Positions 28,244-40,760 of a DNA stretch of 64,000 nucleotides are shown piece by piece. The stretch covers positions 6,411-70,410 of the forward strand of contig ONNZ01000011.1 in assembly GCA_900319345.1 (NCBI GenBank), given 5' to 3'. Each line of letters opens with the position of its first letter. Position 1 is the stretch's first letter. Made by a program: the position numbers and the translations under genes. The stretch is from an uncultured Eubacteriales bacterium. GTDB lineage: Bacteria > Bacillota > Clostridia > Christensenellales > CAG-138. Under the pieces are notes generated by a model that was not told the DNA's origin, searched no databases, and worked only from the letters and a program-made list of their open reading frames with translations.

Positions 28244-29836
28244 TTACAGGCTGAAATCCGGGGCGTTGTCCCGCTGGTAGGAGCACCAGTTGCCGTTTTC
28301 GATGAGCTCCTCCCGGGCAAGGAGCAGCAGGAGCGATTCGTCCTGGCCGTAGATGGAGAGCCGATCCAGTATCTTCTGGTAGAAGGCGGCCATCTTCACA
28401 TGATCCTCCACGCCCCGGGACAGGGACAGCTTCCCGTAGTAGTTGGAGATGAAGAGGGTGGCGGCGGAGATGCTCCCCAGCACCAGCTTGATAAGGGTCC
28501 GATACTCCTCCGCCTCCGGGATGGCGCCGAGGCGGGGGAAGAGGCCGCCGTACAGCACCTCGAACACCAGGGCCAAAAGGTACAGCACGATGCTGATCAG
28601 CAGGGCCGCGCCCACCACCCGGCCGCTGATGCGGAGCTTGGTCTGGGCCTTCTTTTGGGCCTTCCGGTGGTAATTGAACTGATCCTCCGCCCAGCAGGCC
28701 CGGATGTCGTGGCTTTCCTTCGGCGCCTCGCCCACGCAGAGGACGGTGATGGCCATGGCGATCCAGGGGGTCTCCTCCTGCTGGCTCCAGGGCAGCAGGG
28801 TGATGGCCTCCCGCCGGACCCCGGCGTAGCGCAGAAAGCCTTGGGCCCGCAGGCTCTCGGCCAGCACCCGGTACTCCAGGTACCGTCGGTGGCAGCTGGA
28901 CCGATAGGCGAACCGGGTCAGCACCCACGCAAGGAGCAGCGAAAGGCCGCACACCAGGATGAGCCAGTGCAGGTTCGCCTCGTCGTACAGCAGGAATGCG
29001 GCGGTGATCAGGGTGCTGAGCACGGCCAGCAGGATGAGGACGCGCCGATACACCTTAGCGAACCGCAGGCTTAGCCGGTCCGCCTGCTGATACACGGCCT
29101 CGATCCGATCGAGGAGGGGGTCCTCCTCCTGGCGCTCCGGCAGCAGGGGATAGGCGTCGGCGGTATCGGTCTTGTCTGCCAAAGCGTTGAACTCCTCCGT
29201 CCGGTCCATGAGCGTCTGCCAGGGCTCCCCGTCCCCCAGCCGCCGCACAGCGCCCGGGACGTTCGCCGCCTGCTCAGTTCGGGGCGTGAAAAGATGGATC
29301 ACCGCCGTGGAGGAGAAGAGGGGGGCGCTGTGGACGGGATGGTAGCTGCCGTGGAGGGCGAACCCCACGGCCTCCGCGGTGCCGCAGCCGGTTTTGGTGC
29401 CGGGGCCCCCGTCCCACAGGGCCAGGAGCACGTGGCAGTGGGTGGCCACGTAGATGCCGGCCTGCCGGTAGTAGAAATCCCGGTCGGGGGCTTGGGGCAG
29501 GGCCTCCGTGGCCGGGGTCACGAAGCGCTGCTCCGCCTTGGATAAAAGGTCCCGAAAGCTATGGAGGGCCGCCCCGGCGAAGTCCTGCTCGTACTCCGCC
29601 AGGGGGAGGGGCAGGGCCGCGACCAGGGGGATGCCCAGGCTGAGGGCGGCTTCGGCGCAGAGCTGGTCGGCCCCCTCGGCCAGACTGTTGAGCATGACCA
29701 TGGGGCTGTGGGGATAGCTCTCCCGCAGCCCTTCCAGCTCTCGCTTCACCCCCGCCAAGAGGGCGGGCCTGTCCTCCGGCCGGATGGCCCGGTGGCCCGT
29801 GACCCCTACCGTCAGGGGGATGCGTTCAGTTTCCAT
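28244..29836 (-). CDS. SLOG (LOG/DprA-like Rossmann) domain fused to a multi-TM, tandem SLATT-like membrane module
   Basis: This is a 530-aa ORF. The N-terminus has VGVTGHR, NSLAEGADQLCAEAAL (DprA-like S.lA.G.D..a..aAL) and WDGGPGTKTGCGTAEAV (LOG-like PGGxGTxxE). The C-terminal half has about 5 hydrophobic helices (VLILLAVLSTLITAAFLLY, WLILVCGLSLLLAWVL, VVGAALLISIVLYLLALVF, LIKLVLGSISAATLFISNYY). Amphipathic helices flank these helices. Confidence 0.6.
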   Translation of the reverse strand: METERIPLTVGVTGHRAIRPEDRPALLAGVKRELEGLRESYPHSPMVMLNSLAEGADQLCAEAALSLGIPLVAALPLPLAEYEQDFAGAALHSFRDLLSKAEQRFVTPATEALPQAPDRDFYYRQAGIYVATHCHVLLALWDGGPGTKTGCGTAEAVGFALHGSYHPVHSAPLFSSTAVIHLFTPRTEQAANVPGAVRRLGDGEPWQTLMDRTEEFNALADKTDTADAYPLLPERQEEDPLLDRIEAVYQQADRLSLRFAKVYRRVLILLAVLSTLITAAFLLYDEANLHWLILVCGLSLLLAWVLTRFAYRSSCHRRYLEYRVLAESLRAQGFLRYAGVRREAITLLPWSQQEETPWIAMAITVLCVGEAPKESHDIRACWAEDQFNYHRKAQKKAQTKLRISGRVVGAALLISIVLYLLALVFEVLYGGLFPRLGAIPEAEEYRTLIKLVLGSISAATLFISNYYGKLSLSRGVEDHVKMAAFYQKILDRLSIYGQDESLLLLLAREELIENGNWCSYQRDNAPDFSL

Positions 29837-31553
29837 ACACCGCCATGCCGCTGCGCTCGGCCAGGGACGGGATGTTGCGGATGGCGTCTCGATCGTAGTC
29901 CTTGATCTCCTCGGACAGCTGGTCGTAGGGCACCAGGTAGGGGGAGGTCTTCTTCTCGGCGTTCCGTTCGCCCAGCTTCCAGCCCCGGCTCAGGCGCTCC
30001 TGCATCCAGGCCTCGTGCTCCAGCTCGGCCATGAACTCCACCAGCTCCGGCGGGAATTCCTTCACGGCGCCCTTCTTGCCCTTGGGCCCCAGGCGGTAGC
30101 CCACCTGCTCCAGCCGGTCGCAGATGTTCTGGGCCTGGCGCAGGTTGCTGTACTTCAAATCATCGGGCAGCTGGGAGAAATCGGGGTAATCCAAAGGCCG
30201 CTCCGGGTGATCCTGGAGCTGCTTCTCGCAGTAGCGGGCGTGGATGGCGATGGCCAGCAGCTCGATATCCTTCAGCAGCGGCCGGGCGTTCACCTTCTGA
30301 AGCTGGGGCTTGAAGGGCTCGAAACTGTCCAGACTCTCCGCGTCCACGTCGAAGCCCAGGGGGAAGATGGCCTTGAGGTCCAGGAGCCCTTGCAAGAGCT
30401 CGATCTTCTCCCTACAGAACTTCTCGGGCAGGTGGCCGTGCCTCGTCACGTAGGTGGCGGAAAGGTATCCGTTCTTGACGGACAGGTGCACCGTGTCCGC
30501 CAGGGTGAAGGTCCGGGTCAGGATGCCGTGAGCCTCCCGGTTCCACTCCTGGAGCTCGTCGCAGAGGATCAGCAAAAAGGCGATGGGGTTCTTCTGGGCG
30601 GCCATGGGCCCGAGGTTGAAGGGCTTCTTCTGCAGCACGTTCCGATAGTAGTTGTGAAGGAGGATGGCCGTGGCGCTGTCGAGGATGGGCCAATAGAACC
30701 GCTCCGGGTGGTCGCCGGACATCTGGATGGCGTAGCCGTACCACTTGAGGATGATCATGGCGCTGTAGTAGCCGTGATCGATGAAGCCGGAGGCGGCCAT
30801 GTCGTTCACGAACCGGTCCACGGCCTTCTTGGTCTCCATGAGATCCGTGCCCAGGGTCTGGTGCACGTGGTGGGCCAAGAGGTCGTTGGGGGTCAAGAGG
30901 TCGATATAGGAGCAGCTCTCATAGGCGTCGTAGTAGGCCCGGGTGAAGGGGCGCTTGGGCACCACCTCCCGGATGTGGTTCAGCTCCGAGAAGTTCTCGA
31001 ATTTGATCTGGGCCTTGACCCGGACCTCGTCCCCGTCCGCGTCCGCCACCATGCGGATGAACCGGTTGATCTGGTGGCCCACGATCTCCACCGGGTAGCC
31101 CACGTCGTGGAACAGGGCCGCCACGCCCCAGCGGAAGAAGAACTCCTCGTGGGGGGTCTGGTAGGCGTAGATGTAGTCCTTCTCGGGCACGGCGCTGTCG
31201 AAGGCCTTCCGGTAGGCCTCGTTCTCGGCGTAGATGCTGAGGCCCGTCAAAAACACGTTCACCGCGTGGATGAAGTGGTCCCGCTGCTTGTCGATGAGGG
31301 TGGCGGCGGTGGCCTCGTAGTGTCGCAGGATGTCCACGAGGTCGATGAACGGGTCGTTCTTGCCGGGCAGGGTGATCCGATAGCTGTCGAAGAAGGCCCG
31401 GTAGACGGCGAAAGCGGTCTCCGGGGTCTCGCCGGACAGGAAGGTCGACACGGCGCCCCGCAGGAAGGACTTGTAGCTGTGGCCCTCCTGCAGGTCGGCG
31501 GCAAGGCTCAGCTGATCGAAAAATCGGTCCACGAAGGGGGAAAGATTGCTCAT
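29826..31553 (-). CDS. HD-domain phosphohydrolase fused to a C-terminal RyR (ryanodine-receptor-type) domain
   Basis: Based on ORF 29826..31583. The start MSNLSPFVDRF follows AAAGGAG. HD motifs are RDHFIHAVNVF and AALFHDVGYP, with IDHGYYS later. The C-terminus reads LAIAIHARYCEK...FMAELEHEAWMQERLSRGWKLGERNAEKKTSPYLVPYDQLSEEIKDYDRDAIRNIP, which matches the RyR-domain pattern. It overlaps the next gene by 11 nt. Confidence 0.65.
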   Translation of the reverse strand: MSNLSPFVDRFFDQLSLAADLQEGHSYKSFLRGAVSTFLSGETPETAFAVYRAFFDSYRITLPGKNDPFIDLVDILRHYEATAATLIDKQRDHFIHAVNVFLTGLSIYAENEAYRKAFDSAVPEKDYIYAYQTPHEEFFFRWGVAALFHDVGYPVEIVGHQINRFIRMVADADGDEVRVKAQIKFENFSELNHIREVVPKRPFTRAYYDAYESCSYIDLLTPNDLLAHHVHQTLGTDLMETKKAVDRFVNDMAASGFIDHGYYSAMIILKWYGYAIQMSGDHPERFYWPILDSATAILLHNYYRNVLQKKPFNLGPMAAQKNPIAFLLILCDELQEWNREAHGILTRTFTLADTVHLSVKNGYLSATYVTRHGHLPEKFCREKIELLQGLLDLKAIFPLGFDVDAESLDSFEPFKPQLQKVNARPLLKDIELLAIAIHARYCEKQLQDHPERPLDYPDFSQLPDDLKYSNLRQAQNICDRLEQVGYRLGPKGKKGAVKEFPPELVEFMAELEHEAWMQERLSRGWKLGERNAEKKTSPYLVPYDQLSEEIKDYDRDAIRNIPSLAERSGMAVYGN

Positions 31554-31618
31554 GTTTCTGCTCCTTTCGTTGCTTAGATACAATTATATCCGTTTCCGCG
31601 CCCAAAGGGAAGGGGGGA

Positions 31619-34600
31619 TCATTGGATTTCCAGCCTAAAAACGTACCCCTCGCCCAGGGAGTCGGCGGCTTCGGCCATGTCGCTGGACAGGTACAGCTGT
31701 CTAAGATCGTTCGGCAGCTCCCGCAGGCAGCTTAGGTCCGTGAGCTGGGGGTTCCAGCGAAGGTCCAGCTGCTCCAGCATGGGATGGGCGGCCACGAAGG
31801 CCCGAAGCTGCTCGTTGGTGATGCCCGAGCGGTGGCAGGAGAGATCGTGCATCTCCTTGCCCATCACGTGATCCAGCCACCGATCCACCGGCACGTTGTT
31901 CATGTTCAGCCCCCAGTAGACGGGCACCGCCTCCAACACCCCGTAGTCCTCGTAGGTGAGCTTGTTGCTGTCCGTCACGTCCAACGCCACCCAAAAGCCC
32001 CAGCTGTTGTAATCCTCCGACGTGCAGTAGCTATAGTCCACCCGTTCGAGGGGCGAGAAGTCCCGCACGTTGGTGCCGGACAGGCTGATGCTGACCAGGC
32101 GGGGCAACTGCTCGATGCCCGCGATGCTGTCGATGGGCTCGTTTCGCAGGCTGACGTCCTCCAGGGAGGCCGTCCGCCACAGGGCGGAGAAGTCGGTGAT
32201 CTTGCGGCATTCCTCGATGGTGATCCGCCGAAGCTGGGGGAAATCCTCCACGCCGTCCAACGTGGTCAAATCCTGGCCGTACAGGTCCAGCTGCTCCAGG
32301 TTCGGCAGCAAAGCGGCCAGCTCGCCCATGTCCGTCACGGCCCCGGCGAGCAGGGGCAGCCGTTCGTCGGTCTCGTTGCTGTGCAGATACAGCTTCGGCG
32401 GGTCGGTGACCCAGTCCTCCTCGAACCACCAGGGGCCGCCGGCGTAGACGTATTCGCCCGCGAGGGACAGGCTCTTGATGTACCGCCGCATCGCCTCCGG
32501 CTGGGCCTTCAGCTCCTTGAAGGTCATCATGGGCAGCTGGAAGGCCACGTCCTCCAGGGCGGAGCAGGCGGCCAGGGGCGACAGGTCCGTCACGGGGCTG
32601 CCGTTCACGTCCAGGCGCCGGAGAGCGTACAGGTTCTGTATCCCCTGGAGGGAGGCGACGCCGGTGTACTGGAACCGCAGCTCCTCCAGACTCTGGATCG
32701 TGAAGGCGGCGGAGGCGTCGGCGAGGGCCGGGCACTGCCGGATGTCCAGGTTCTTGAGATCGCCCATGGCCTGGATGCCCTCCAGGGAGGCGAGCTCCAG
32801 CTGGGCGTAGACGGTCAGCTCCCGAAGCCCCGTCAGCTTTTCAAGGACGGTCAGGTCCGTCAGCGTCCCCGGCTCCACGGGTATGCGCTCCTCCTCCCCG
32901 TCGTAGCGAAGGTACAGGGCGGGCGGGTCCGTGGCCCAGTCCTCCTCCACCCAGGCGCCCTCGGGCACCACCGCGTCCCCGGCCAACGTCAGCCGGCCGA
33001 TGCGTCCGAGGAGGGCGCTGGGGAGGCTGTCGATCTCCGCAAGGCTCGCAAGCTCGATGTCAGGCTGGACGGGCTCCCATCCGCCCTCCGGGTAGACGAC
33101 CTGATACGCCTCCAGCAGGCCGCTGTCCACCATGGCCTGGGCCTGCTCCATAAGATGGGCCGGGATCTGCAGGCTCTTGCCCTTCAGGTGGTAGAGGGGC
33201 GACAGGTCCGTGACCCCGTCCACGTCCATAAGGGAGATGCTGTACCAGTCCTGCTTATAGTTTTCGAAGCAGGACAGGTCCTTGAGGTCGAAGATGGTGG
33301 TGAGGGTGATGTTCTTGGTCACCACGTTTCCGAAGTCAGGCAGGCTGAACAGCCCCTCCAAATGGATCTCGTAGATGCTCCGCCCCGTCAGAGCCGACCA
33401 GTCGTAGAGCCGGGGGCAGTTATAGATCTCCAGCTCCTGCATCCTGGGCATCCCCTCCAGTCCGGCAAGGGAGGCGAGGTAGGGGCAGTCGTCCAGGATC
33501 AGCCGTCGGGCGTCGGGCTGGTCCAGCCCCTCCAGGGAGCGGACGCAGTGGAGCAGCAGCTCGTTGGTCACATGGGGGAGCAGGGTCACGTCCAGCCCCT
33601 CGCTCTGGTTGCCCCGGCCGCCCCGGTTCCACAGCTCGAAGTCAGTGACCGTGGCGTTCTGGACATAGGGCAGGGCGCTGCCGTTCCGGTCCGTGATGTT
33701 GAGATAGCTGTATTTTTCGATGGCGGCCAGGCCCTCCCAGTTCGGCACCTCCGCGATGCCGAAGGAGAAGTATTCCTTGTTCTCGATATCCCAGAGGAAG
33801 TCCACGTCGTTGACGTCGACCCCATACAGCTGCAGGTCCCGGAGCTTGGGGAGCTTGGTCACCGGTGTCAAATCTCGCAAGGCGAAGCACTCGTGCATGG
33901 TCAGGGACTCGAGAGCCGTGCAGCCCGAGAGGGCGGAGATGTCCGTCAGGTTCCGCAGGTTCCAGGTGTTGATCTGCCGCAGCCTCACATGGTCCTCCAG
34001 CCCGTGGAAGGACCGCAGGGTCTCCATGTTGGAGAGGCTCAGCTGTTTCAGCGATCGGCAGCCCGCCAGGAAGGACAGGTCGCTGACAGGGCAGTCCTGC
34101 AAGTAGAGTTTGTCCAGATTGACGCAGGAGGAGAGGGCGGTCAGGTCCCTGAGCTGGAAGCAGCCGTCGATGTCCACACTGTCCAGCAGCACCTTGCTGT
34201 TGAGCCCCTGGAGGCTGGTGAGCCTCTCCATGCCCCGCAGATGCACTCTGCTCAGGGCGCTGGCGTTCGAAAGGCAGGTCAGGTCCAAAATGGGCACGTT
34301 GGCAAAGTGCACATGATCCAGCTTCCGGCAGTTTTTCAACCCGGACAGGTTGACGGTCCGCTGCTCCCCTTCCAGGCTCAGGTTCAAATCCCTCAGGCTG
34401 GCGGGGCCGAATCCGGACAGGTCCGCTTCGGCGGTCCCGTACAGGTTCATGAACACGGTGTTGAGCTGCGGGCACTCGTTGAGGGGGGAGAAGTCCAGCA
34501 CCGGGCCGTGGTAGTTGAACACCTGCAGTCGGCGGCCCTTCACCCCGGAGATGTCGTCGATGGCGCAGTCGAAGAGCTCCACGCAGTCCAGCTTCTGGAG

Positions 34601-35404
34601 GCCCGACAGGTCCGGCAGCGTGCCCTCCACCTGGACCAGCGTCAGCAGCATCAGGTTCTTCATATAGGGCAGGAAGCTCAGATCCCCCCAATCGTGGAGG
34701 GCGTACTCGTGGCCGTCCTCGGCACTGTACCAGTGGGCCCGGCCCTCCTCCACGCTGAAGCTTCGATTGGCGACCTGCTCCACGCCCACCCGGGAGATGC
34801 CCCGGTCCGCCAGGGTCCCGTCGTCCTCGCTGAAGGCGTAGAAGCCGTTCCCCACGATGATGAGCTCGTGGACCTGCTCCAGCTCCTGCAGGGTCAGGTC
34901 CACCTCCTTCGGGAACACGGGCTCCGGAGTGGGCGTGGCGGGGATCGGTGTGGGGGGCAGCGGCGGCGGGACTTGCCGCTTCTGAAACAGGACGATGCCG
35001 CCCACCAGGAGCAGCGCCACAGCCGCCAGGGACAGGATCAGGGGCAGGCGGTTCCTTCTATCGCCCATGGCCGCCGTGGCGATCCGGCCCGCCAGCTCCT
35101 CCGGCCCGTATTTCTGGCCGTCCAGGCCGTGCCGGGCCATGAGGGCGCGCTGGAGCTCCTCCGGGGGCGTGGACCCGTCCAGGTTCACCGGGATCACCAG
35201 CGCCCGGCCCGCGTTGAGCCGGAAGAATTGGTCCGCCTCCGGGCTGTCCGCCGACAGGCTTTCCGACAGGAACAGCATCAGGGCGTCCCCCTTCCGGGGG
35301 TCTGCGGCGCGCACGGTGACGCCCTTCTTCTTCAGGGCGTCCAGGATGGGCTTCACGCGGCTCTCGTCCGCGGGGGCGTAGAGGGGATAGATGGCTCGTT
35401 TCAT
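31619..35404 (-). CDS. TIR-like domain / single TM / large extracellular leucine-rich-repeat protein (1,261 aa)
   Basis: The N-terminus is a flavodoxin-like beta-alpha-beta pattern (AIYPLYAPADESRVKPILDALKKKGVTV...ALMLFLSESL...PEAD...ALVIPVNLDG). An Arg-rich stop-transfer (GDRRNR) precedes the TM helix LPLILSLAAVALLLVGGIVLF, then a Pro-rich linker. About 1,050 aa of ~22-24-aa LRRs follow (L..L..L.L..C..L.DLS.L). Confidence 0.65.
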   Translation of the reverse strand: MKRAIYPLYAPADESRVKPILDALKKKGVTVRAADPRKGDALMLFLSESLSADSPEADQFFRLNAGRALVIPVNLDGSTPPEELQRALMARHGLDGQKYGPEELAGRIATAAMGDRRNRLPLILSLAAVALLLVGGIVLFQKRQVPPPLPPTPIPATPTPEPVFPKEVDLTLQELEQVHELIIVGNGFYAFSEDDGTLADRGISRVGVEQVANRSFSVEEGRAHWYSAEDGHEYALHDWGDLSFLPYMKNLMLLTLVQVEGTLPDLSGLQKLDCVELFDCAIDDISGVKGRRLQVFNYHGPVLDFSPLNECPQLNTVFMNLYGTAEADLSGFGPASLRDLNLSLEGEQRTVNLSGLKNCRKLDHVHFANVPILDLTCLSNASALSRVHLRGMERLTSLQGLNSKVLLDSVDIDGCFQLRDLTALSSCVNLDKLYLQDCPVSDLSFLAGCRSLKQLSLSNMETLRSFHGLEDHVRLRQINTWNLRNLTDISALSGCTALESLTMHECFALRDLTPVTKLPKLRDLQLYGVDVNDVDFLWDIENKEYFSFGIAEVPNWEGLAAIEKYSYLNITDRNGSALPYVQNATVTDFELWNRGGRGNQSEGLDVTLLPHVTNELLLHCVRSLEGLDQPDARRLILDDCPYLASLAGLEGMPRMQELEIYNCPRLYDWSALTGRSIYEIHLEGLFSLPDFGNVVTKNITLTTIFDLKDLSCFENYKQDWYSISLMDVDGVTDLSPLYHLKGKSLQIPAHLMEQAQAMVDSGLLEAYQVVYPEGGWEPVQPDIELASLAEIDSLPSALLGRIGRLTLAGDAVVPEGAWVEEDWATDPPALYLRYDGEEERIPVEPGTLTDLTVLEKLTGLRELTVYAQLELASLEGIQAMGDLKNLDIRQCPALADASAAFTIQSLEELRFQYTGVASLQGIQNLYALRRLDVNGSPVTDLSPLAACSALEDVAFQLPMMTFKELKAQPEAMRRYIKSLSLAGEYVYAGGPWWFEEDWVTDPPKLYLHSNETDERLPLLAGAVTDMGELAALLPNLEQLDLYGQDLTTLDGVEDFPQLRRITIEECRKITDFSALWRTASLEDVSLRNEPIDSIAGIEQLPRLVSISLSGTNVRDFSPLERVDYSYCTSEDYNSWGFWVALDVTDSNKLTYEDYGVLEAVPVYWGLNMNNVPVDRWLDHVMGKEMHDLSCHRSGITNEQLRAFVAAHPMLEQLDLRWNPQLTDLSCLRELPNDLRQLYLSSDMAEAADSLGEGYVFRLEIQ

Positions 35405-35433: not shown

Positions 35434-38400
35434 TCAACCCACTTGCAGCTCGAACCCGTACCCCTCCCCCAGGGAGGCTTTGGCCTGGGCCATGTTGGGA
35501 GACATCCGGACCTTCCGCAGGTTTTCCAGATTCAGCAGGCAGCTCACGTCGGTCAGCTGCGGGTTCCAGGAGATCTGCACCTCCTCCAGCTCCGGATGGG
35601 CCTCCACGAAGGCTTTGAACTGTTCGTTGGTGAAGCCGCAGTCGTCGGCGTTGAGCCGCTTCACGGGCTTTCCCGCCAGATGATCCAGCCACAGCTTGGC
35701 GGGCACGTTGTGGAGCTCCAGCTGGGAGAAGCCGGGGATGCCCTCCAGGAAGGCGTAGGCGTCCTGGGGCAGGCTGTCGCTGTTCATCACGTTCAGGGCA
35801 AGCGACACGCCCGGCTCCCGGTCCTGGGTCATGGCATAGGTGAAGTCCACCTGACCCAGGGGCGAGAAGTCCCGGATGTTGGTCCCCGCCACCCGTACCT
35901 GGCGCAGGTGCTTGAGCCCCTCAATGCCCTCGAGAGAGGTGATCTTCGTGTTGCACACCTCCAGCATCTCCAGGTCGTAGAGGTTCTGCACCCCCTGGAG
36001 GGAGGCCACGGGGCAGCGCTCGAAGTTGATCTCCTTGAGCCCCTGGAGGGTGAAGGCGGCGGAAACGTCCGTCAGGTTCGGGCTGAACATCACCCTGAGC
36101 CGCTGCAGGTTCTCGAGAGCCTGGACGCCTTCGAGGCTGGTTAACGGCTGCCACCACAGGTTCAGATCCTCCAAGCCCGTCAGCACGCTGAGCTTGGAGA
36201 GGTCCGTGATCCGGGTCCCGGGCTTGTCGATCTTCTTCTGCTCGCCCGTGGCCCGATCCTCGACGAAGGCGGGCACGTTCTGCTGCCCCCAATCGGACCA
36301 GAAGTTCGTGGTATCGTCGTTCACCAGCTCATCGCCGATGATGGTGAGCCGCTTCACATGCTTCAACAGGGAGGGGGGCAGGGTCTCCAGCTCATCGAGG
36401 CTCAGCAGCTGTACCTGCATGTCGCTGGGGTCCCAGCCGCCGTCGGGATAGACGATCTCGTACTTCTTGAACCGCTTGTCCTCCACCAGCCCCTTGGCCT
36501 GCTCGCCCACCTGGGGCGGCACCTCCAGCTTGTTTCCATGGAGCCGGAACAGGGGGGCGAGGCTGGCGATCTGAGGCAGGTCCTCCAGACGGAAGCTGTA
36601 GCTTCGATCATCGCTGATCCCGTCAAGACAGCTTAGATCAGGCAGCACGTCCTCCGACAGCTTTTCCAATGTCAGCTCCTGGAAGGCAACGGCGCTGAAA
36701 TCGGGCAGCGTCAGCACCCGTTCGATCTCGAGCCGGTGGAAGGTCTTTCCTTCGATCCCCGACCAGTCCGAGAGACGGGGGCAGTTTTCCACGGTCAGGA
36801 TGCTGTCCGCCTTGCCGAAGCCGGTCAAATTTTCGATGCCGGCGAAGGAGGTGAAGTAGGGGCAGTCCTGGATCCAGAGCTTCGTACTGAAGTTCATCTC
36901 CCGGATGCCGGTGAGATCCCGGTTGAGGCAGTCGCACAGGTCCAGCTCCCCGGTCACGTTGGGCAGGGTGGAGAGGTCCACCAGACCCCCGTTGTAGATC
37001 ATCAGCTGGCGGATGGTTTTTCCCTCCAGATAGGGTGCCACCGCAGCGTAGTTGCCGCAGGTGTTCGCATGCACGTAGTTGAAGGTGTCGATGGCGTCGA
37101 TGCCCGAATAATCGCAGGGACCGGCGATGCAGAACTCCAGGACCACGTTCTTTTTGATCCGCAGCTCCTTCAAAAAGTCCAGACTGCCGATGTGGTTCGC
37201 CCCGAACAGAGCGATGCTTTGGAGCCGGGGGAGCCGGCCCAGCACGCTCACGTCCGTCAGGTACTCCAAGGGACCGTTTCCGGAGAGACGGAACTCGACG
37301 AGGCTGCTGCAGCCTTCCAATGGGGAGATGTCCCTGAGCAGAGGGGCGTCGTTGATGTTGACGATCTTCAGGTACCGATGATCCTCCAGTCCCTCCAGGG
37401 TCCTTAGCCCTTCCAGATCGTCGATCCGCAGCTCCTCCAGCAGGGGCGCCCCTTCGAGGCCAGTGAGGGTGCGCAGAGAATCCGTCCAACGCAGCTCCAG
37501 CTTCTTAAGCTTACCGGCGTTGGCGAGGCAGCTTAGATCGGTGAGCTGAGGGTAGCCGTCGACGAGCAGCTCCTGCAGGTTGGGACACTGGAGCAGGAAG
37601 GAGAAGTCCACCCCTTCCACACCAAAGCCGGACCCCAGGCCAAAACTGACCAGCTTGGGCGGATGGAAAGAGGAAAGGTCCACCCGGGGGGAGCCCACCA
37701 GGTCCAGATGGGCGGAGCGCAGATTCTGGCAATCCGTAAGGGGCGAGAAATCGCTGACGCCCGCGCCGTGATATTCGATGTTCTGGATGGTGCTTCCCCG
37801 GAGCCCTTCCAGATCGGAAAGGTCGCTGTAGCCCACCATCACGTCCCGCAGGTCCGTAAGCCCCGAAAGGTCCGGCAAAGTGGCGGTCACGTTGTACAGG
37901 GAGAGGAACCGCAAATTGGGCAGCAGAGCCAGCCAGCTGAGGTCGTCCAGCGTCACGTGGGGATACTCGTGACCGTCCTCCTTGCTGTAGAAGTGGACGC
38001 CGTCATCCATCCAGCCGCCGTAGGCAAAGTCCTCGTCGCGGCGCGGGTTCACGTACTTGCCCTTGGTGTTCTTCTCGTCAAAGGTATAGAAGTGGAACTC
38101 GTCGCCCATGAACACCACCTCGGCCACCTGCTCGAGATCCACATCGATGCCGTCCACCCGGGGCGGCTCCGTAGGGGCCGGCGTGGCCGTGGCGGGGACC
38201 TCCGTGGCGGGCGGCGTCGGCGGGGGCGGGGTCTGCCGCTGCCGGAACAGGAGGATGGCGCCTACGGCCAGGAACGCCGCCGACCCGATCAAGGTCAGGA
38301 TCAGGGGCAGGAGGCTCTTTTTATCGCCCTTGACCGCCTTGGCCACAAGGTCGCTGAGCTCCTCTGCGCTGTACTTGCGGCCGTCCAGGGTGTGGCGGGC

Positions 38401-38667
38401 CATGAGGGCGTTCTGCAGCTCCTCCGGGGGCGTGGACCCGTCCAGGTTCACCGGGATCACCAGTTCCCGGCCCGCGTTCAGCCGGAAGAAATCGTCCACG
38501 GCGGGGCTGTCCAACCCCAGGTTTTCCGACAGGAACAACACCAGGGCGTCCTTCTTGCCGGGCTTCGCGCTCCGCACCGTGACGCCCCTTTGCCCCAGGG
38601 CATCCAGGATGGGCTTCACCCGGCTCTCGTCCGCGGGGGCGTACAGGGGATAGATGGCTCGCTTCAT
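35434..38667 (-). CDS. TIR-like domain / single TM / extracellular leucine-rich-repeat protein (1,077 aa), paralog of 31619..35404
   Basis: Based on ORF 35434..38682. The start MKRAIYPLYAPADESRVKPILDAL follows AAAGGAAAG. The first ~100 aa are largely identical to the downstream paralog. The TM helix is LLPLILTLIGSAAFLAVGAILLF. The LRR ectodomain is divergent. Confidence 0.65.
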   Translation of the reverse strand: MKRAIYPLYAPADESRVKPILDALGQRGVTVRSAKPGKKDALVLFLSENLGLDSPAVDDFFRLNAGRELVIPVNLDGSTPPEELQNALMARHTLDGRKYSAEELSDLVAKAVKGDKKSLLPLILTLIGSAAFLAVGAILLFRQRQTPPPPTPPATEVPATATPAPTEPPRVDGIDVDLEQVAEVVFMGDEFHFYTFDEKNTKGKYVNPRRDEDFAYGGWMDDGVHFYSKEDGHEYPHVTLDDLSWLALLPNLRFLSLYNVTATLPDLSGLTDLRDVMVGYSDLSDLEGLRGSTIQNIEYHGAGVSDFSPLTDCQNLRSAHLDLVGSPRVDLSSFHPPKLVSFGLGSGFGVEGVDFSFLLQCPNLQELLVDGYPQLTDLSCLANAGKLKKLELRWTDSLRTLTGLEGAPLLEELRIDDLEGLRTLEGLEDHRYLKIVNINDAPLLRDISPLEGCSSLVEFRLSGNGPLEYLTDVSVLGRLPRLQSIALFGANHIGSLDFLKELRIKKNVVLEFCIAGPCDYSGIDAIDTFNYVHANTCGNYAAVAPYLEGKTIRQLMIYNGGLVDLSTLPNVTGELDLCDCLNRDLTGIREMNFSTKLWIQDCPYFTSFAGIENLTGFGKADSILTVENCPRLSDWSGIEGKTFHRLEIERVLTLPDFSAVAFQELTLEKLSEDVLPDLSCLDGISDDRSYSFRLEDLPQIASLAPLFRLHGNKLEVPPQVGEQAKGLVEDKRFKKYEIVYPDGGWDPSDMQVQLLSLDELETLPPSLLKHVKRLTIIGDELVNDDTTNFWSDWGQQNVPAFVEDRATGEQKKIDKPGTRITDLSKLSVLTGLEDLNLWWQPLTSLEGVQALENLQRLRVMFSPNLTDVSAAFTLQGLKEINFERCPVASLQGVQNLYDLEMLEVCNTKITSLEGIEGLKHLRQVRVAGTNIRDFSPLGQVDFTYAMTQDREPGVSLALNVMNSDSLPQDAYAFLEGIPGFSQLELHNVPAKLWLDHLAGKPVKRLNADDCGFTNEQFKAFVEAHPELEEVQISWNPQLTDVSCLLNLENLRKVRMSPNMAQAKASLGEGYGFELQVG

Positions 38668-38700
38668 AGTCTTTCCTTTCAAATACTGTATGGATGATGC

Positions 38701-39915
38701 TTACGGCACCAGCACCACGGTGAAATCACAGGTCTCCGGCCAAACGAGGGGCAGCATGTCCGCGCTGACGGTGACGGTCTTCAGCGACGGCAGATCCGCC
38801 AGGGGACTTAGGTCCTTCACGCCGCTGTGTTCAAGATGCAGCGTCTCCAGCCGGGGCAGGTCCGTGAGCCCCGTCAGGGTTTCCAACGACCTGTCACCGG
38901 ACAGGTACAGCTCCTTCAGCATCACGAGGCCGCTGAGGGCCCGGGCGCTGGACAGGGGCTGATACACCAGGGCCAGCTTCTCGAGATAGGCCATCTTCCC
39001 GATGATGGACAGATCCCGCACCTTGCCCTCCTGGGGCTTGCTGCCGTTCACCAGGCATTCCCCCTGGTGGGTGAAGGCCGTGTGTTCCAGATCCGGCGCG
39101 TACATGTTGCCCACGATGGCCAGTTCCGTCACCGCCGCCAGCTCGTTCAGCTTGATCTTCTCCGTGGCCCCGACGGTCCCCAGGATCACCCGGACGGCCT
39201 TCTCCTGATCCGTGTCGGGGAAGTCCACCTCGTCCATGCCCGGGGGGAAGGAGGGCGTGGGGGGCGGGGTGCTCGTGGCGTCAGGGGTGGCTGTAGGCGT
39301 GGGCGCGGGGGTGGCCGTGGCCGTGGCGGTGGGGGAGGGGGTCGGCGTCGAGCCCCCATAAATCAGCTGGTCCCACCAGCCGGCGTAGACCCCGTAGGCC
39401 CCCGCCAGGGCTGCCCCGAACAGGATCGCGGACAGCAGGAACCCGAACAGGCCCCGGGGAAGCTTCTCCCACCACTTGCGGTAGAAGGCCCCCTTGAGTT
39501 TCTTGTGCCGGGTGACCTGGTCCGCCCGGGCCTTGGCGTCCCCGGGGGTGGGGAGGGGAAGGCAGCTTTTTAATAAGGTCTCCCACTCGCTGCCGGGCTC
39601 AGGCCGACTGTCGTCCAGGGCGAAGTACAGCACGGGCTTTTTCAGGGCTACGGCGGTCTCGATCTCCGAACGGCAGTTGCTGGAGGCGAGGGCCGTCCTG
39701 GACAGGAAGAACAGGACCATGGCCGAGCAGCGCATGTGGGTCTCGATGTTCTTGGGCCAGTCGTTGCCCGCCGGGATGCCCTCGTCGTACCAGAGCCGGA
39801 CCTTTCGCTGGTGGAGCAGGGTGATGGTCTCCAGGACCTCCGGGGAATCCCGGTGAGAATAGCTGATGAACAGATAGGGTCGCTTGCCCTCGTAGGGGGT
39901 GAAGAAGGCGCTCAT
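38701..39915 (-). CDS. canonical TIR domain / single TM / Pro-Thr linker / short LRR ectodomain protein (404 aa)
   Basis: The N-terminus follows the TIR_2-type pattern, including the W/N..xE glutamate position. It reads RPYLFISYSHRDSPEVLETITLLHQRKVRLWYDEGIPAGNDWPKNIETHMRCSAMVLFFLSRTALASSNCRSEIETAVALKKPVLYFALDD. The TM helix is GLFGFLLSAILFGAALAGAYGVY. A (TPxP)n linker follows, then LRRs (LKELYLSGDRSLETLTGLTDLPRLETLHLEHSGVKDLSPLADLPSLKTV). Confidence 0.75.
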   Translation of the reverse strand: MSAFFTPYEGKRPYLFISYSHRDSPEVLETITLLHQRKVRLWYDEGIPAGNDWPKNIETHMRCSAMVLFFLSRTALASSNCRSEIETAVALKKPVLYFALDDSRPEPGSEWETLLKSCLPLPTPGDAKARADQVTRHKKLKGAFYRKWWEKLPRGLFGFLLSAILFGAALAGAYGVYAGWWDQLIYGGSTPTPSPTATATATPAPTPTATPDATSTPPPTPSFPPGMDEVDFPDTDQEKAVRVILGTVGATEKIKLNELAAVTELAIVGNMYAPDLEHTAFTHQGECLVNGSKPQEGKVRDLSIIGKMAYLEKLALVYQPLSSARALSGLVMLKELYLSGDRSLETLTGLTDLPRLETLHLEHSGVKDLSPLADLPSLKTVTVSADMLPLVWPETCDFTVVLVP

Positions 39916-40760
39916 GGCTGGTCACCTCCCGCCACGATCAGGGTGTAGCTGTCGTAGAGCTCCGGCTGCTCCGGGGCCCCCTGGGCCGCCGCCTCCGACA
40001 GGATCAGGGTGGTGAGGCGGGGGAGAAGGGCAAGCTCCTTTGGGTTTTCGGGCAGTTGGGACAGATACAGGCTCTCCAGCTCGGCCACCGCTTCCTCCGT
40101 GATGGGGCCGCCGCCGATGGCGAAGCGGACCGCCTCCCGCAAGGCTTCGTCCTGGAAGAGGACCGCGTCCTCCGGCGGGGCGACCTCCTCCTGGGGCGGC
40201 GGCGCGGGGGGATTCAGATACCGATACGCCCCGGCGCCTCCGGCCAGCAGCAGGGCCAGCACGATCAGCAGGACGCTGATCCGCCGGAGCCACAGCCGGT
40301 CGTAGACGGGCAGCGGGTCCCCCCGATAGAGTTGAGAGAAGTAGGGGCTGTGGAAGATGGCGCCCACCAGCTCCGAGGCGTTGGTCCCCGGGGTGACGGA
40401 GGAGAACTGGCCCGTGAGTCCCAGGGAAAGGCCCCCGTCCCCGCCGTCCGTGTTCAGCACCAGGATGGGCTGCCGGGCCTTCTGGCAGACCAGCAGCTGG
40501 TTCTTCAGCTCCATGTCCCGCCGGGCGCTGTCCGTGAGGAACAGCACCGTGAGCCCGGCCCCCAGCATGCGCTGGCTTCGAGCGTTCCCGCTGGTCCTGT
40601 CCCGGGAGTAGCCCACGCAGTACCACACCCGGCAGCCCCGGAGCAGCAGCTGCCGCAGCAGGGGCCGGACCTTGCGCTCGTCCCGGTCGGAGAAGCACAG
40701 GTGGATGTAGGGCTCCGCGCCCATATAGGGGGGATAGTAGGTTTCGGTTTTGCTGGCCAT
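39912..40760 (-). CDS. divergent TIR-like domain / single TM / short ectodomain protein (282 aa)
   Basis: The TIR-like part reads EPYIHLCFSDRDERKVRPLLRQLLLRGCRVWY...LTVLFLTDSARRDMELKNQLLVCQKARQPILVLNTD. The TM helix is RRISVLLIVLALLLAGGAGAY. An ~100-aa C-terminal segment has one or two LRR-like units. An ATGA overlap joins it to the next gene. Confidence 0.55.
   Translation of the reverse strand: MASKTETYYPPYMGAEPYIHLCFSDRDERKVRPLLRQLLLRGCRVWYCVGYSRDRTSGNARSQRMLGAGLTVLFLTDSARRDMELKNQLLVCQKARQPILVLNTDGGDGGLSLGLTGQFSSVTPGTNASELVGAIFHSPYFSQLYRGDPLPVYDRLWLRRISVLLIVLALLLAGGAGAYRYLNPPAPPPQEEVAPPEDAVLFQDEALREAVRFAIGGGPITEEAVAELESLYLSQLPENPKELALLPRLTTLILSEAAAQGAPEQPELYDSYTLIVAGGDQP

Follow-up and report, generated by a model that had tools for sequence, protein, structure and literature searches.

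A ryanodine-receptor-type module joined to a divergent HD-like domain beside bacterial TIR and SLOG-SLATT genes: a candidate receptor/effector of Thoeris-like signalling

What could a ryanodine-receptor (RyR) domain be doing in a bacterial operon that also carries TIR genes? The question is raised by a 64,000-nucleotide (nt) stretch of contig ONNZ01000011.1 of an uncultured Eubacteriales bacterium from the rumen Clostridia (hereafter the window), in which a minus-strand gene encodes a 575-amino-acid (aa) protein with a very divergent HD-like domain in its N-terminal part and an RyR/Repeat12 (R12)-type module at its C-terminus. We propose, with confidence that is evenly balanced, that this HD-RyR protein is a Thoeris-like receptor/effector, i.e., that its RyR module receives an ADP-ribose (ADPR)-type signal made by a TIR protein and switches on the HD-like hydrolase. 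As described in a recent survey, the anti-phage system Thoeris combines the TIR protein ThsB with an effector activated by its signal, for example the SIR2-SLOG protein ThsA in type I or the SLATT protein ThsH in type VII; SLOG is the sensor in type I, and SLATT is the effector in type VII, with cyclic ADPR (cADPR) as the signal (10.64898/2025.12.03.692087).

The identity of the C-terminal part is far beyond chance, in agreement with a preliminary description of the locus that had been made from the DNA letters and had claimed an RyR domain there. With 53.6 bits and an E of 2.6e-14, the match of the Pfam RyR family (PF02026) to aa 503-561 lies well above the gathering threshold of 27.4, and a search of PDB sequences returned only ryanodine-receptor repeats and a Bacteroides 'putative ryanodine receptor', with E values down to 1.5e-22. 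In the entire source genome (2.14 Mb) this gene alone matches PF02026. An AlphaFold2 (AF2) model built on 42 homologues (mean pLDDT 82), was aligned by Foldseek to the tandem R12 structures 6uhi, 6uhe, 6uhh and 9l9b over 177-199 columns with probability 1.00 and E values of 8e-6 to 1e-4. The first three of these are RyR3 R12 with ATP, and 9l9b contains dantrolene and ADP. Since the alignment to the tandem R12 covers 177-199 columns, the module is predicted to span aa ~427-575 as two pseudo-symmetric repeats, one degenerate and one canonical.

The canonical repeat 2 (aa 503-575; 29829..30047, minus strand) is delimited by PF02026, the RyR repeats of the PDB and an alignment to gp72 of phage CB4. 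Repeat 1 (aa 427-490; 30084..30275, minus strand) was recognised as a degenerate RyR-type repeat from Foldseek, an internal-repeat alignment and an alignment to the same phage protein, an orthologue of RyR Tad. It has no Pfam match and is collinear with repeat 2 over 61 columns (P 0.007), carrying H438, Y441 and N470 in place of the H, W and D of repeat 2; H438 was placed by the RyR Tad orthologue alignment, Y441 and N470 by the internal-repeat alignment. A small alpha/beta linker subdomain precedes the module (aa ~350-420; 30294..30506, minus strand), with AF2 strands at 354-360, 363-370 and 400-407, and no family match was found for it. Both in structure and in sequence, the last 150 aa are best matched by the R12 of animal ryanodine receptors (6uhh, 9l9b, 6uhi), with which they share the two-repeat tandem and the adenine-nucleotide binding site. 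In contrast to the animal receptors, the bacterial protein has no channel context, and a single R12-like unit is joined to a hydrolase-like domain.

Regarding the N-terminal half, the AF2 model, residue conservation, weak PF01966 matches and hhalign point to an all-helical, very divergent HD-like domain (aa 1-345; 30519..31553, minus strand). Its conserved residues are H96, H149-D150, D259-H260, H300-N301 and C331-D332-E333. The three motifs quoted in the preliminary description were all found, namely DHFIHAVNVF (H96), LFHDVGYP (H149, D150) and IDHGYYS (D259, H260), and over 193 diverse relatives H96, H149, D150, D259, H260, H300 and D332 are 95-97% identical. The motifs around these residues hold the most conserved positions of the family, and R91, D92, E156, N301, C331 and R339 are 90-96% identical in the same set. 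An H-HD-H-H-D ligand pattern is typical of binuclear members of the HD superfamily, and H96, H149-D150, H260, H300 and D332 follow it in the same order. The contexts of these residues in the family (HyIHSVNV, LFHDIGYP, DHG, LLHN and LCDELQ) also resemble five motifs, again in the same order, of the HD domains encoded elsewhere in the source genome. When 56 diverse family members were scanned singly against Pfam, PF01966 gave a sub-threshold match in 21 of them (best E 1.2e-3), while any other non-RyR family appeared in at most three; we regard this recurrence as the best single piece of evidence for an HD-like domain. We therefore read the N-domain as a probable, very divergent HD-superfamily domain with large insertions, which should not be filed as a member of Pfam HD. 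Its collinear motifs xxHSxxV, LFHDxG, DHG, LLHN and xxCDExx resemble those of PF01966 proteins, and it is likewise all-helical. It differs in having 53 aa between the first His and the HD dyad and ~100 aa inserted between the dyad and the next His, and in lying outside significant profile or fold matches and curated families.

Two other lines of evidence on this domain were considered and set aside. Strong Pfam HD matches in two family members, P0226 (1366 aa) and P0243 (1271 aa), come from a separate, canonical C-terminal HD domain, found ~1000 aa downstream of the divergent N-domain in the same chain. A HEPN assignment (Rx4-6H) was rejected, as the only Arg-His pair (R339...H342) is wrongly spaced and its His is not conserved. 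Stand-alone HD-like domains of ~400 aa that lack the RyR module also exist (26 representatives, e.g., P0123, P0139 and P0156).

The genomic association with TIR and SLOG genes that had been suggested from the single locus was borne out across the family. A scan of one genome per species yielded 80 loci, of which the 49 flanked by 4 kb or more on either side were tallied for partners within 8 kb; the TIR, SLOG, SLATT and RyR hidden Markov models (HMMs) were home-made, iterated from the window's own parts, and the genes of the loci were called as simple open reading frames (ORFs). Both TIR and SLOG/SLATT partners were found at 16/49 loci, TIR only at 15/49, SLOG/SLATT only at 9/49 and neither at 9/49. 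TIR genes therefore occur at 31/49 loci (63%) and SLOG/SLATT genes at 25/49. The expected TIR presence would be ~5%, a background rate taken from the six TIR_2 matches in one genome, the window's own, which gives a rough binomial P of 1.7e-28. The order TIR, HD-RyR, SLOG-SLATT is conserved. In addition, compact cassettes in which a TIR gene comes after HD-RyR and either overlaps it by 4 nt or lies 3-13 nt away were found in L020, L027, L028, L032, L041-L044, L052, L057, L062 and L067, and no SLOG/SLATT gene was detected near them by the home-made HMMs. In L027 and L042 the HD-RyR/TIR pair is flanked by opposite-strand genes.

The same partners also occur in one chain. One to three N-terminal TIR domains precede the HD-like-RyR part in P0188, P0196 and P0210, with Pfam TIR_2 scores of 63-95 bits, and L023 is also a TIR-type fusion locus. 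At the other end, HD-like-RyR-SLOG fusions of ~690-780 aa were found in 15 representative clusters (P0221, P0224, P0228-P0230, P0234, P0235, P0238, P0240-P0242, P0249, P0256, P0257 and P0270). In these chains the SLOG region matches the SLOG-like head encoded by the gene downstream of HD-RyR in the window (E 1e-26 to 1e-11 with the home-made SLOG HMM), and two of the four such fusions that were scanned gave a weak Pfam YAcAr or DprA match. Two or three tandem TIR domains were seen before HD-like-RyR in P0196 (1173 aa), P0187, P0188 and P0204.

In the window itself, four TIR-like genes with transmembrane (TM) and leucine-rich-repeat (LRR) parts are followed on the minus strand by the HD-RyR gene and then by a SLOG-2xSLATT gene, all co-directional. 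The upstream genes, recognised by Pfam or the TIR HMM, lie at 39912-40760 (282 aa), 38701-39915 (404 aa; TIR_2 57.7 bits), 35434-38682 (1082 aa) and 31619-35404 (1261 aa), all on the minus strand, and three of the four match LRR families in Pfam. When 71 TIR domains were aligned to the HMM, 69% had Glu at the catalytic column. Among the four window proteins only the 404-aa one has this Glu (E84, in ...NCRSEIE...) and the 282-, 1082- and 1261-aa proteins have Gln, so that perhaps only the 404-aa protein is catalytic. The downstream partner (28244..29836, minus strand; 530 aa) consists of a SLOG-like N-domain and two SLATT/DUF4231-type 2TM modules, as judged from Pfam and NCBIfam. DUF4231 scored 25.9 bits, the SLATT models of NCBIfam matched below their cut-offs, and the YAcAr/YpsA SLOG families gave a sub-threshold match in 21 of 28 orthologues; a search of PDB sequences with the SLOG profile gave no match.

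The HD-RyR gene is real. Its ORF (29826..31553, minus strand; 575 aa plus TGA) runs from an ATG at 31553 to a TGA at 29828-29826, and is supported by the ORF list, by 1267 homologues and by a start (MSNL/MNNL) that homologues from other genomes have in common. An AGGAG ribosome-binding site lies 7 nt 5' of the ATG (31561..31565, minus strand), and the preceding gene is 65 nt away. The stop codon had been described as lying 11 nt inside the next gene, which we confirm: the 3' end (...TAT GGA AAC TGA) overlaps the start of the SLOG-2xSLATT gene by 11 nt (ATGGAAACTGA; 29826..29836, minus strand), with the ATG of the latter (METERIPLTVGV...) inside the HD-RyR gene. The 11-nt overlap recurs in six other loci (L012, L016, L033, L037, L038 and L051). 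Since it persists although the proteins share no more than 53-63% identity, the overlap is a conserved feature and not a chance event.

Two 2026 preprints reported that RyR-type domains of phages bind or cleave Thoeris signals (PMC13232231; 10.64898/2026.06.04.730250), which allows the pocket of the host module to be compared. RyDEP of a mycobacteriophage (DyoEdafos gp78) is an R12-type domain and glycosidase that cuts the ribose-ribose bond of 2'cADPR and 3'cADPR, opening them to ADPR; its catalytic dyad is H75/D117, adenine is stacked by W78 and the phosphates are contacted by H100 (PMC13232231). Other phage PF02026 proteins bind 2'/3'cADPR in the nanomolar range and do not cleave them (PMC13232231). 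For RyR Tad (Pectobacterium phage CB1 gp68) the dissociation constant (KD) of 3'cADPR is 43 nM; 2'cADPR and canonical cADPR are bound as well (< 1 uM), and binding requires the pairs H129/W132, K147/H154 and K170/D171 (10.64898/2026.06.04.730250). In both papers RyR domains are regarded as a means of evasion, and speculation is limited to animal receptors (PMC13232231; 10.64898/2026.06.04.730250).

For residue mapping, the 183-aa RyR Tad orthologue of Pectobacterium phage CB4 (gp72) was aligned with both repeats. In repeat 2, H513, W516 and D554 are identical to H129, W132 and D171 of RyR Tad, R530 is a conservative replacement of K147, and S537 and Y553 differ from H154 and K170, respectively. 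In this alignment to the CB4 orthologue, three of the six residues required for 3'cADPR binding are thus identical, one is conservative and two are different. H513, W516 and D554 are invariant in the 42 homologues, and the Ser that replaces the phosphate-contacting His in the window protein (S537) is also their consensus. As H513, W516 and D554 are kept, the part of the pocket that faces the adenine and the terminal ribose appears to be kept as well, including the putative equivalents of the RyDEP dyad (H513 and D554). The pocket seems to fit a ligand of the cADPR class, and its residues do not specify which one. The suggestion of the preliminary description that the RyR domain may be a signal sensor thus gains support by analogy from the phage studies (PMC13232231; 10.64898/2026.06.04.730250) and from the retained H/W/D core.

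Domain anatomy, conservation of the candidate residues and genomic and fusion linkage are what our analysis demonstrates; from here on we infer. The window protein would be a cytosolic two-part component of Thoeris-like TIR signalling. One of the TIR proteins encoded in the operon would make an NAD-derived ADP-ribose-type signal, which the C-terminal tandem RyR module would bind via H513, W516 and D554, as the phage RyR proteins suggest. Binding would activate the HD-like domain as a metal-dependent hydrolase with the putative ligands H96, H149/D150, H260, H300 and D332, and this enzyme would then degrade a phosphoester substrate (nucleic acid or nucleotides) and arrest the cell. In this window the SLOG-2xSLATT membrane protein would serve as a second, translationally coupled and membrane-directed output. 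The HD-like domain is common to nearly all arrangements and the RyR module to most of them, with TIR as the only other recurrent enzyme. As SLOG/SLATT is absent from both the compact cassettes and the TIR-HD-RyR fusion proteins, a Thoeris-like TIR/HD-RyR pair appears to be the most economical explanation.

Several observations count against this proposal. The preliminary description had called the protein an HD phosphohydrolase; its motifs are conserved and collinear and the weak PF01966 matches recur, but of the two significant profile matches expected, RyR and HD, only the RyR one was obtained. Pfam HD gave no match on the window protein even at E<=10, and neither Pfam at that cut-off nor NCBIfam or PADLOC assigned the N-domain to HD or another family. 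A six-frame PF01966 search of the genome found seven other genes and not the window gene, and a PDB search with a 67-sequence profile of the N-domain returned zero matches. Foldseek of the N-domain model (aa 1-430; pLDDT 87.5, pTM 0.89) against the PDB gave nothing significant, the best match being PPX/GppA domain III (E 0.05, probability 0.69), with PDE10A further down the list at an E above 1. We take these two to share the HD/PDEase-like fold, in which case they are a suggestive hint of an HD fold and no more than that. The family was also compared by hhalign with the seven HD domains of the source genome, as given, with the 193-sequence alignment, and with insertions removed post hoc. The matches were weak and at motif level (P 5e-4 to 3e-3, probability 11-32%). 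In a loose setting H96 and H149/D150 fell on the first His and the HD dyad, and in a second alignment H260 and D332 fell on the later His and Asp. A control with the segment order swapped had the same score; therefore, collinearity adds nothing to it.

The remaining objections concern the signal and its setting. Two of the six pocket residues are changed non-conservatively (Ser537 for His, Tyr553 for Lys), so the ligand may differ from those of the phage RyR proteins. With a RyDEP-type His/Asp dyad present, the module could degrade the signal instead of sensing it. The HD-RyR-SLOG fusions make the role of RyR less clear, as their SLOG part could be a sensor too. Furthermore, 9/49 loci have neither TIR nor SLOG/SLATT by the home-made HMMs, PADLOC models gave no match in the window, and the window is no obvious defence island.

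The retained dyad leads to the strongest rival, a signal-clearing off-switch, which we consider rather unlikely. A RyDEP-like RyR module and/or the HD-like domain would cleave the signal or its product and limit or reset signalling, protecting the cell from the coupled SLOG-SLATT pore much as ring nucleases act in type III CRISPR. The invariance of H513 and D554, equivalent to the RyDEP dyad (PMC13232231), would suit such a function, as would the coupling through the 11-nt overlap to a probable membrane-killing effector, which fits a safety partner, and the 9/49 loci that pair HD-RyR with SLOG/SLATT and have no TIR nearby. However, the 15/49 loci with TIR only, the two-gene cassettes and the TIR-HD-RyR fusions have no SLOG/SLATT to restrain, the majority of phage RyR proteins that have these residues bind without catalysis (PMC13232231), and a conserved 430-aa enzyme domain seems excessive for a timer. 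We thus favour the effector over the signal-clearing role because TIR and HD-RyR loci exist without SLOG/SLATT. The two can also be combined as a self-limiting receptor: with the His/Asp dyad still in place, it may itself break down the bound ligand at a slow rate, by analogy with the self-limiting effector Csm6.

Two further explanations are less likely than either of these. It is improbable, in our view, that the protein works independently of TIR and simply accompanies conflict genes, its R12-type module sensing ordinary adenine nucleotides such as ATP or ADP and its N-domain serving as a metabolic or regulatory hydrolase or as a helical scaffold without catalysis. The R12 structures nearest to the model hold ATP, ADP or AMP-PCP, the HD assignment is statistically insecure, and the loci with neither partner would be in keeping with it, but the strong TIR/SLOG linkage including covalent fusions, the near-invariant putative catalytic His/Asp and the patchy, accessory distribution all argue otherwise. 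We regard as highly improbable that HD-RyR is a signal-converting enzyme turning the TIR product into a second molecule, the true ligand of the adjacent or fused SLOG. The conserved order of TIR, HD-RyR and SLOG-SLATT, the HD-RyR-SLOG fusions and the deviation of the RyR pocket at the phosphate-contacting position (S537) would agree with such a conversion, yet TIR and HD-RyR loci without a SLOG gene speak against it, and we know of no precedent in bacterial TIR systems.

Returning to the receptor/effector, its likeness to Thoeris lies in a TIR gene adjoining one whose product combines the binding of a small molecule with an enzymatic or membrane part, in compact two-gene cassettes, in a patchy accessory distribution and in the SLOG/SLATT partner in the window. 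TIR genes are found in the neighbourhood as the four upstream genes of the window, at 31/49 loci and in fusions. The differences are that here the sensor candidate is the RyR/R12 module and the enzyme a divergent HD-like domain, and that the TIR proteins of the window are membrane proteins with outward LRRs. In four supplementary files of the survey of 29 putative Thoeris types the terms 'RyR', 'ryanodine', PF02026 and PF01966 are absent, and in its main text ryanodine receptors are mentioned only for animals (10.64898/2025.12.03.692087). A full-text literature search gave no paper in which RyR-domain proteins of hosts are connected to TIR or SLOG, and no experiment on phage protection. Since it lies beside TIR and SLOG genes, or is fused to them, across several phyla, the family probably represents a receptor/effector of a Thoeris-like pathway in the host that has not been described before, and it would add a new pair of sensor and effector to such TIR signalling.

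Compared with the phage proteins, the PF02026/R12 fold and the His-x-x-Trp and Asp pocket residues are shared. RyDEP and RyR Tad, however, are small phage proteins, homodimers of one repeat, while the window gene is a host chromosomal gene within a TIR/SLOG operon, and its 575-aa product has an intramolecular tandem fused to a 430-aa enzyme-like domain, with Ser for the phosphate-contacting His and Tyr for Lys. Its proposed role is reception, not evasion. Only the RyR part matches phage proteins, as Foldseek against BFVD returned only phage RyR proteins, aligned to the C-terminal part. The family would be a concrete host-side counterpart to these proteins, with ~1000 clusters at 50% identity. 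The more general idea that the RyR/R12 fold is a native bacterial receptor for TIR-made cyclic ADP-ribose-type signals activating a hitherto unrecognised HD-like effector, with the phage RyR proteins as decoys, is one that we put forward tentatively, being slightly more inclined to doubt it than to accept it. If true, TIR-based immunity would gain two new domains, one for sensing and one as effector, and the origin of the phage RyR sponges would be explained. The debated connection between cADPR and ryanodine receptors could then be tested with a small soluble bacterial protein, and there would be an evolutionary rationale for the action of cADPR on the animal receptors.

In total, the family comprises 1267 homologues (1039 representatives at 50% clustering), all of the relatives deriving from metagenome-assembled genomes (MAGs) or metagenomes. 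The MAG labels include Clostridia and other Bacillota, Coriobacteriales and other Actinomycetota, Anaerolineae/Chloroflexota, Terriglobales and Lentisphaerae, and within the window's own taxonomic family 13/151 genomes have a match. This patchy distribution is the pattern of an accessory gene. The source genome has five more TIR_2 matches outside the window, including C25:7761-9211, C45:14750-14959, C26:76686-76928 and C2:1-147. Two of the five are adjacent on C25, and none has an RyR partner because the genome holds a single RyR match.

Finally, 38 neighbour proteins from loci without an assigned partner on that side were scanned. Six are DUF4062-NACHT proteins, five of them with WD40 repeats and ~1400 aa long; DUF4062 is, we presume, TIR-related. 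Proteins of this size lie directly upstream of HD-RyR at L024:5788-10005, L034:1183-5385, L040:4915-9114 and L055:5622-9899. The L024 protein is a DUF4062-NACHT-WD40 protein with which the remaining three share 57-58% identity, and L024 also has a SLOG/SLATT gene. These proteins appear to be a different, cytosolic NLR-like partner that replaces TIR-LRR. In loci of Anaerolineae/Chloroflexota the HD-RyR gene is followed by the gene of a second RyR-domain protein of ~590-610 aa (L031:2484-4250, L039:2096-3877, L046:6937-8778, L050:6839-8459, L054:12717-14537 and L075:11864-13618). Five downstream neighbours in the same scan match Pfam TrkA_N, in a tally that does not specify which ones. These additional RyR-domain proteins may represent another type of output coupled to RyR.

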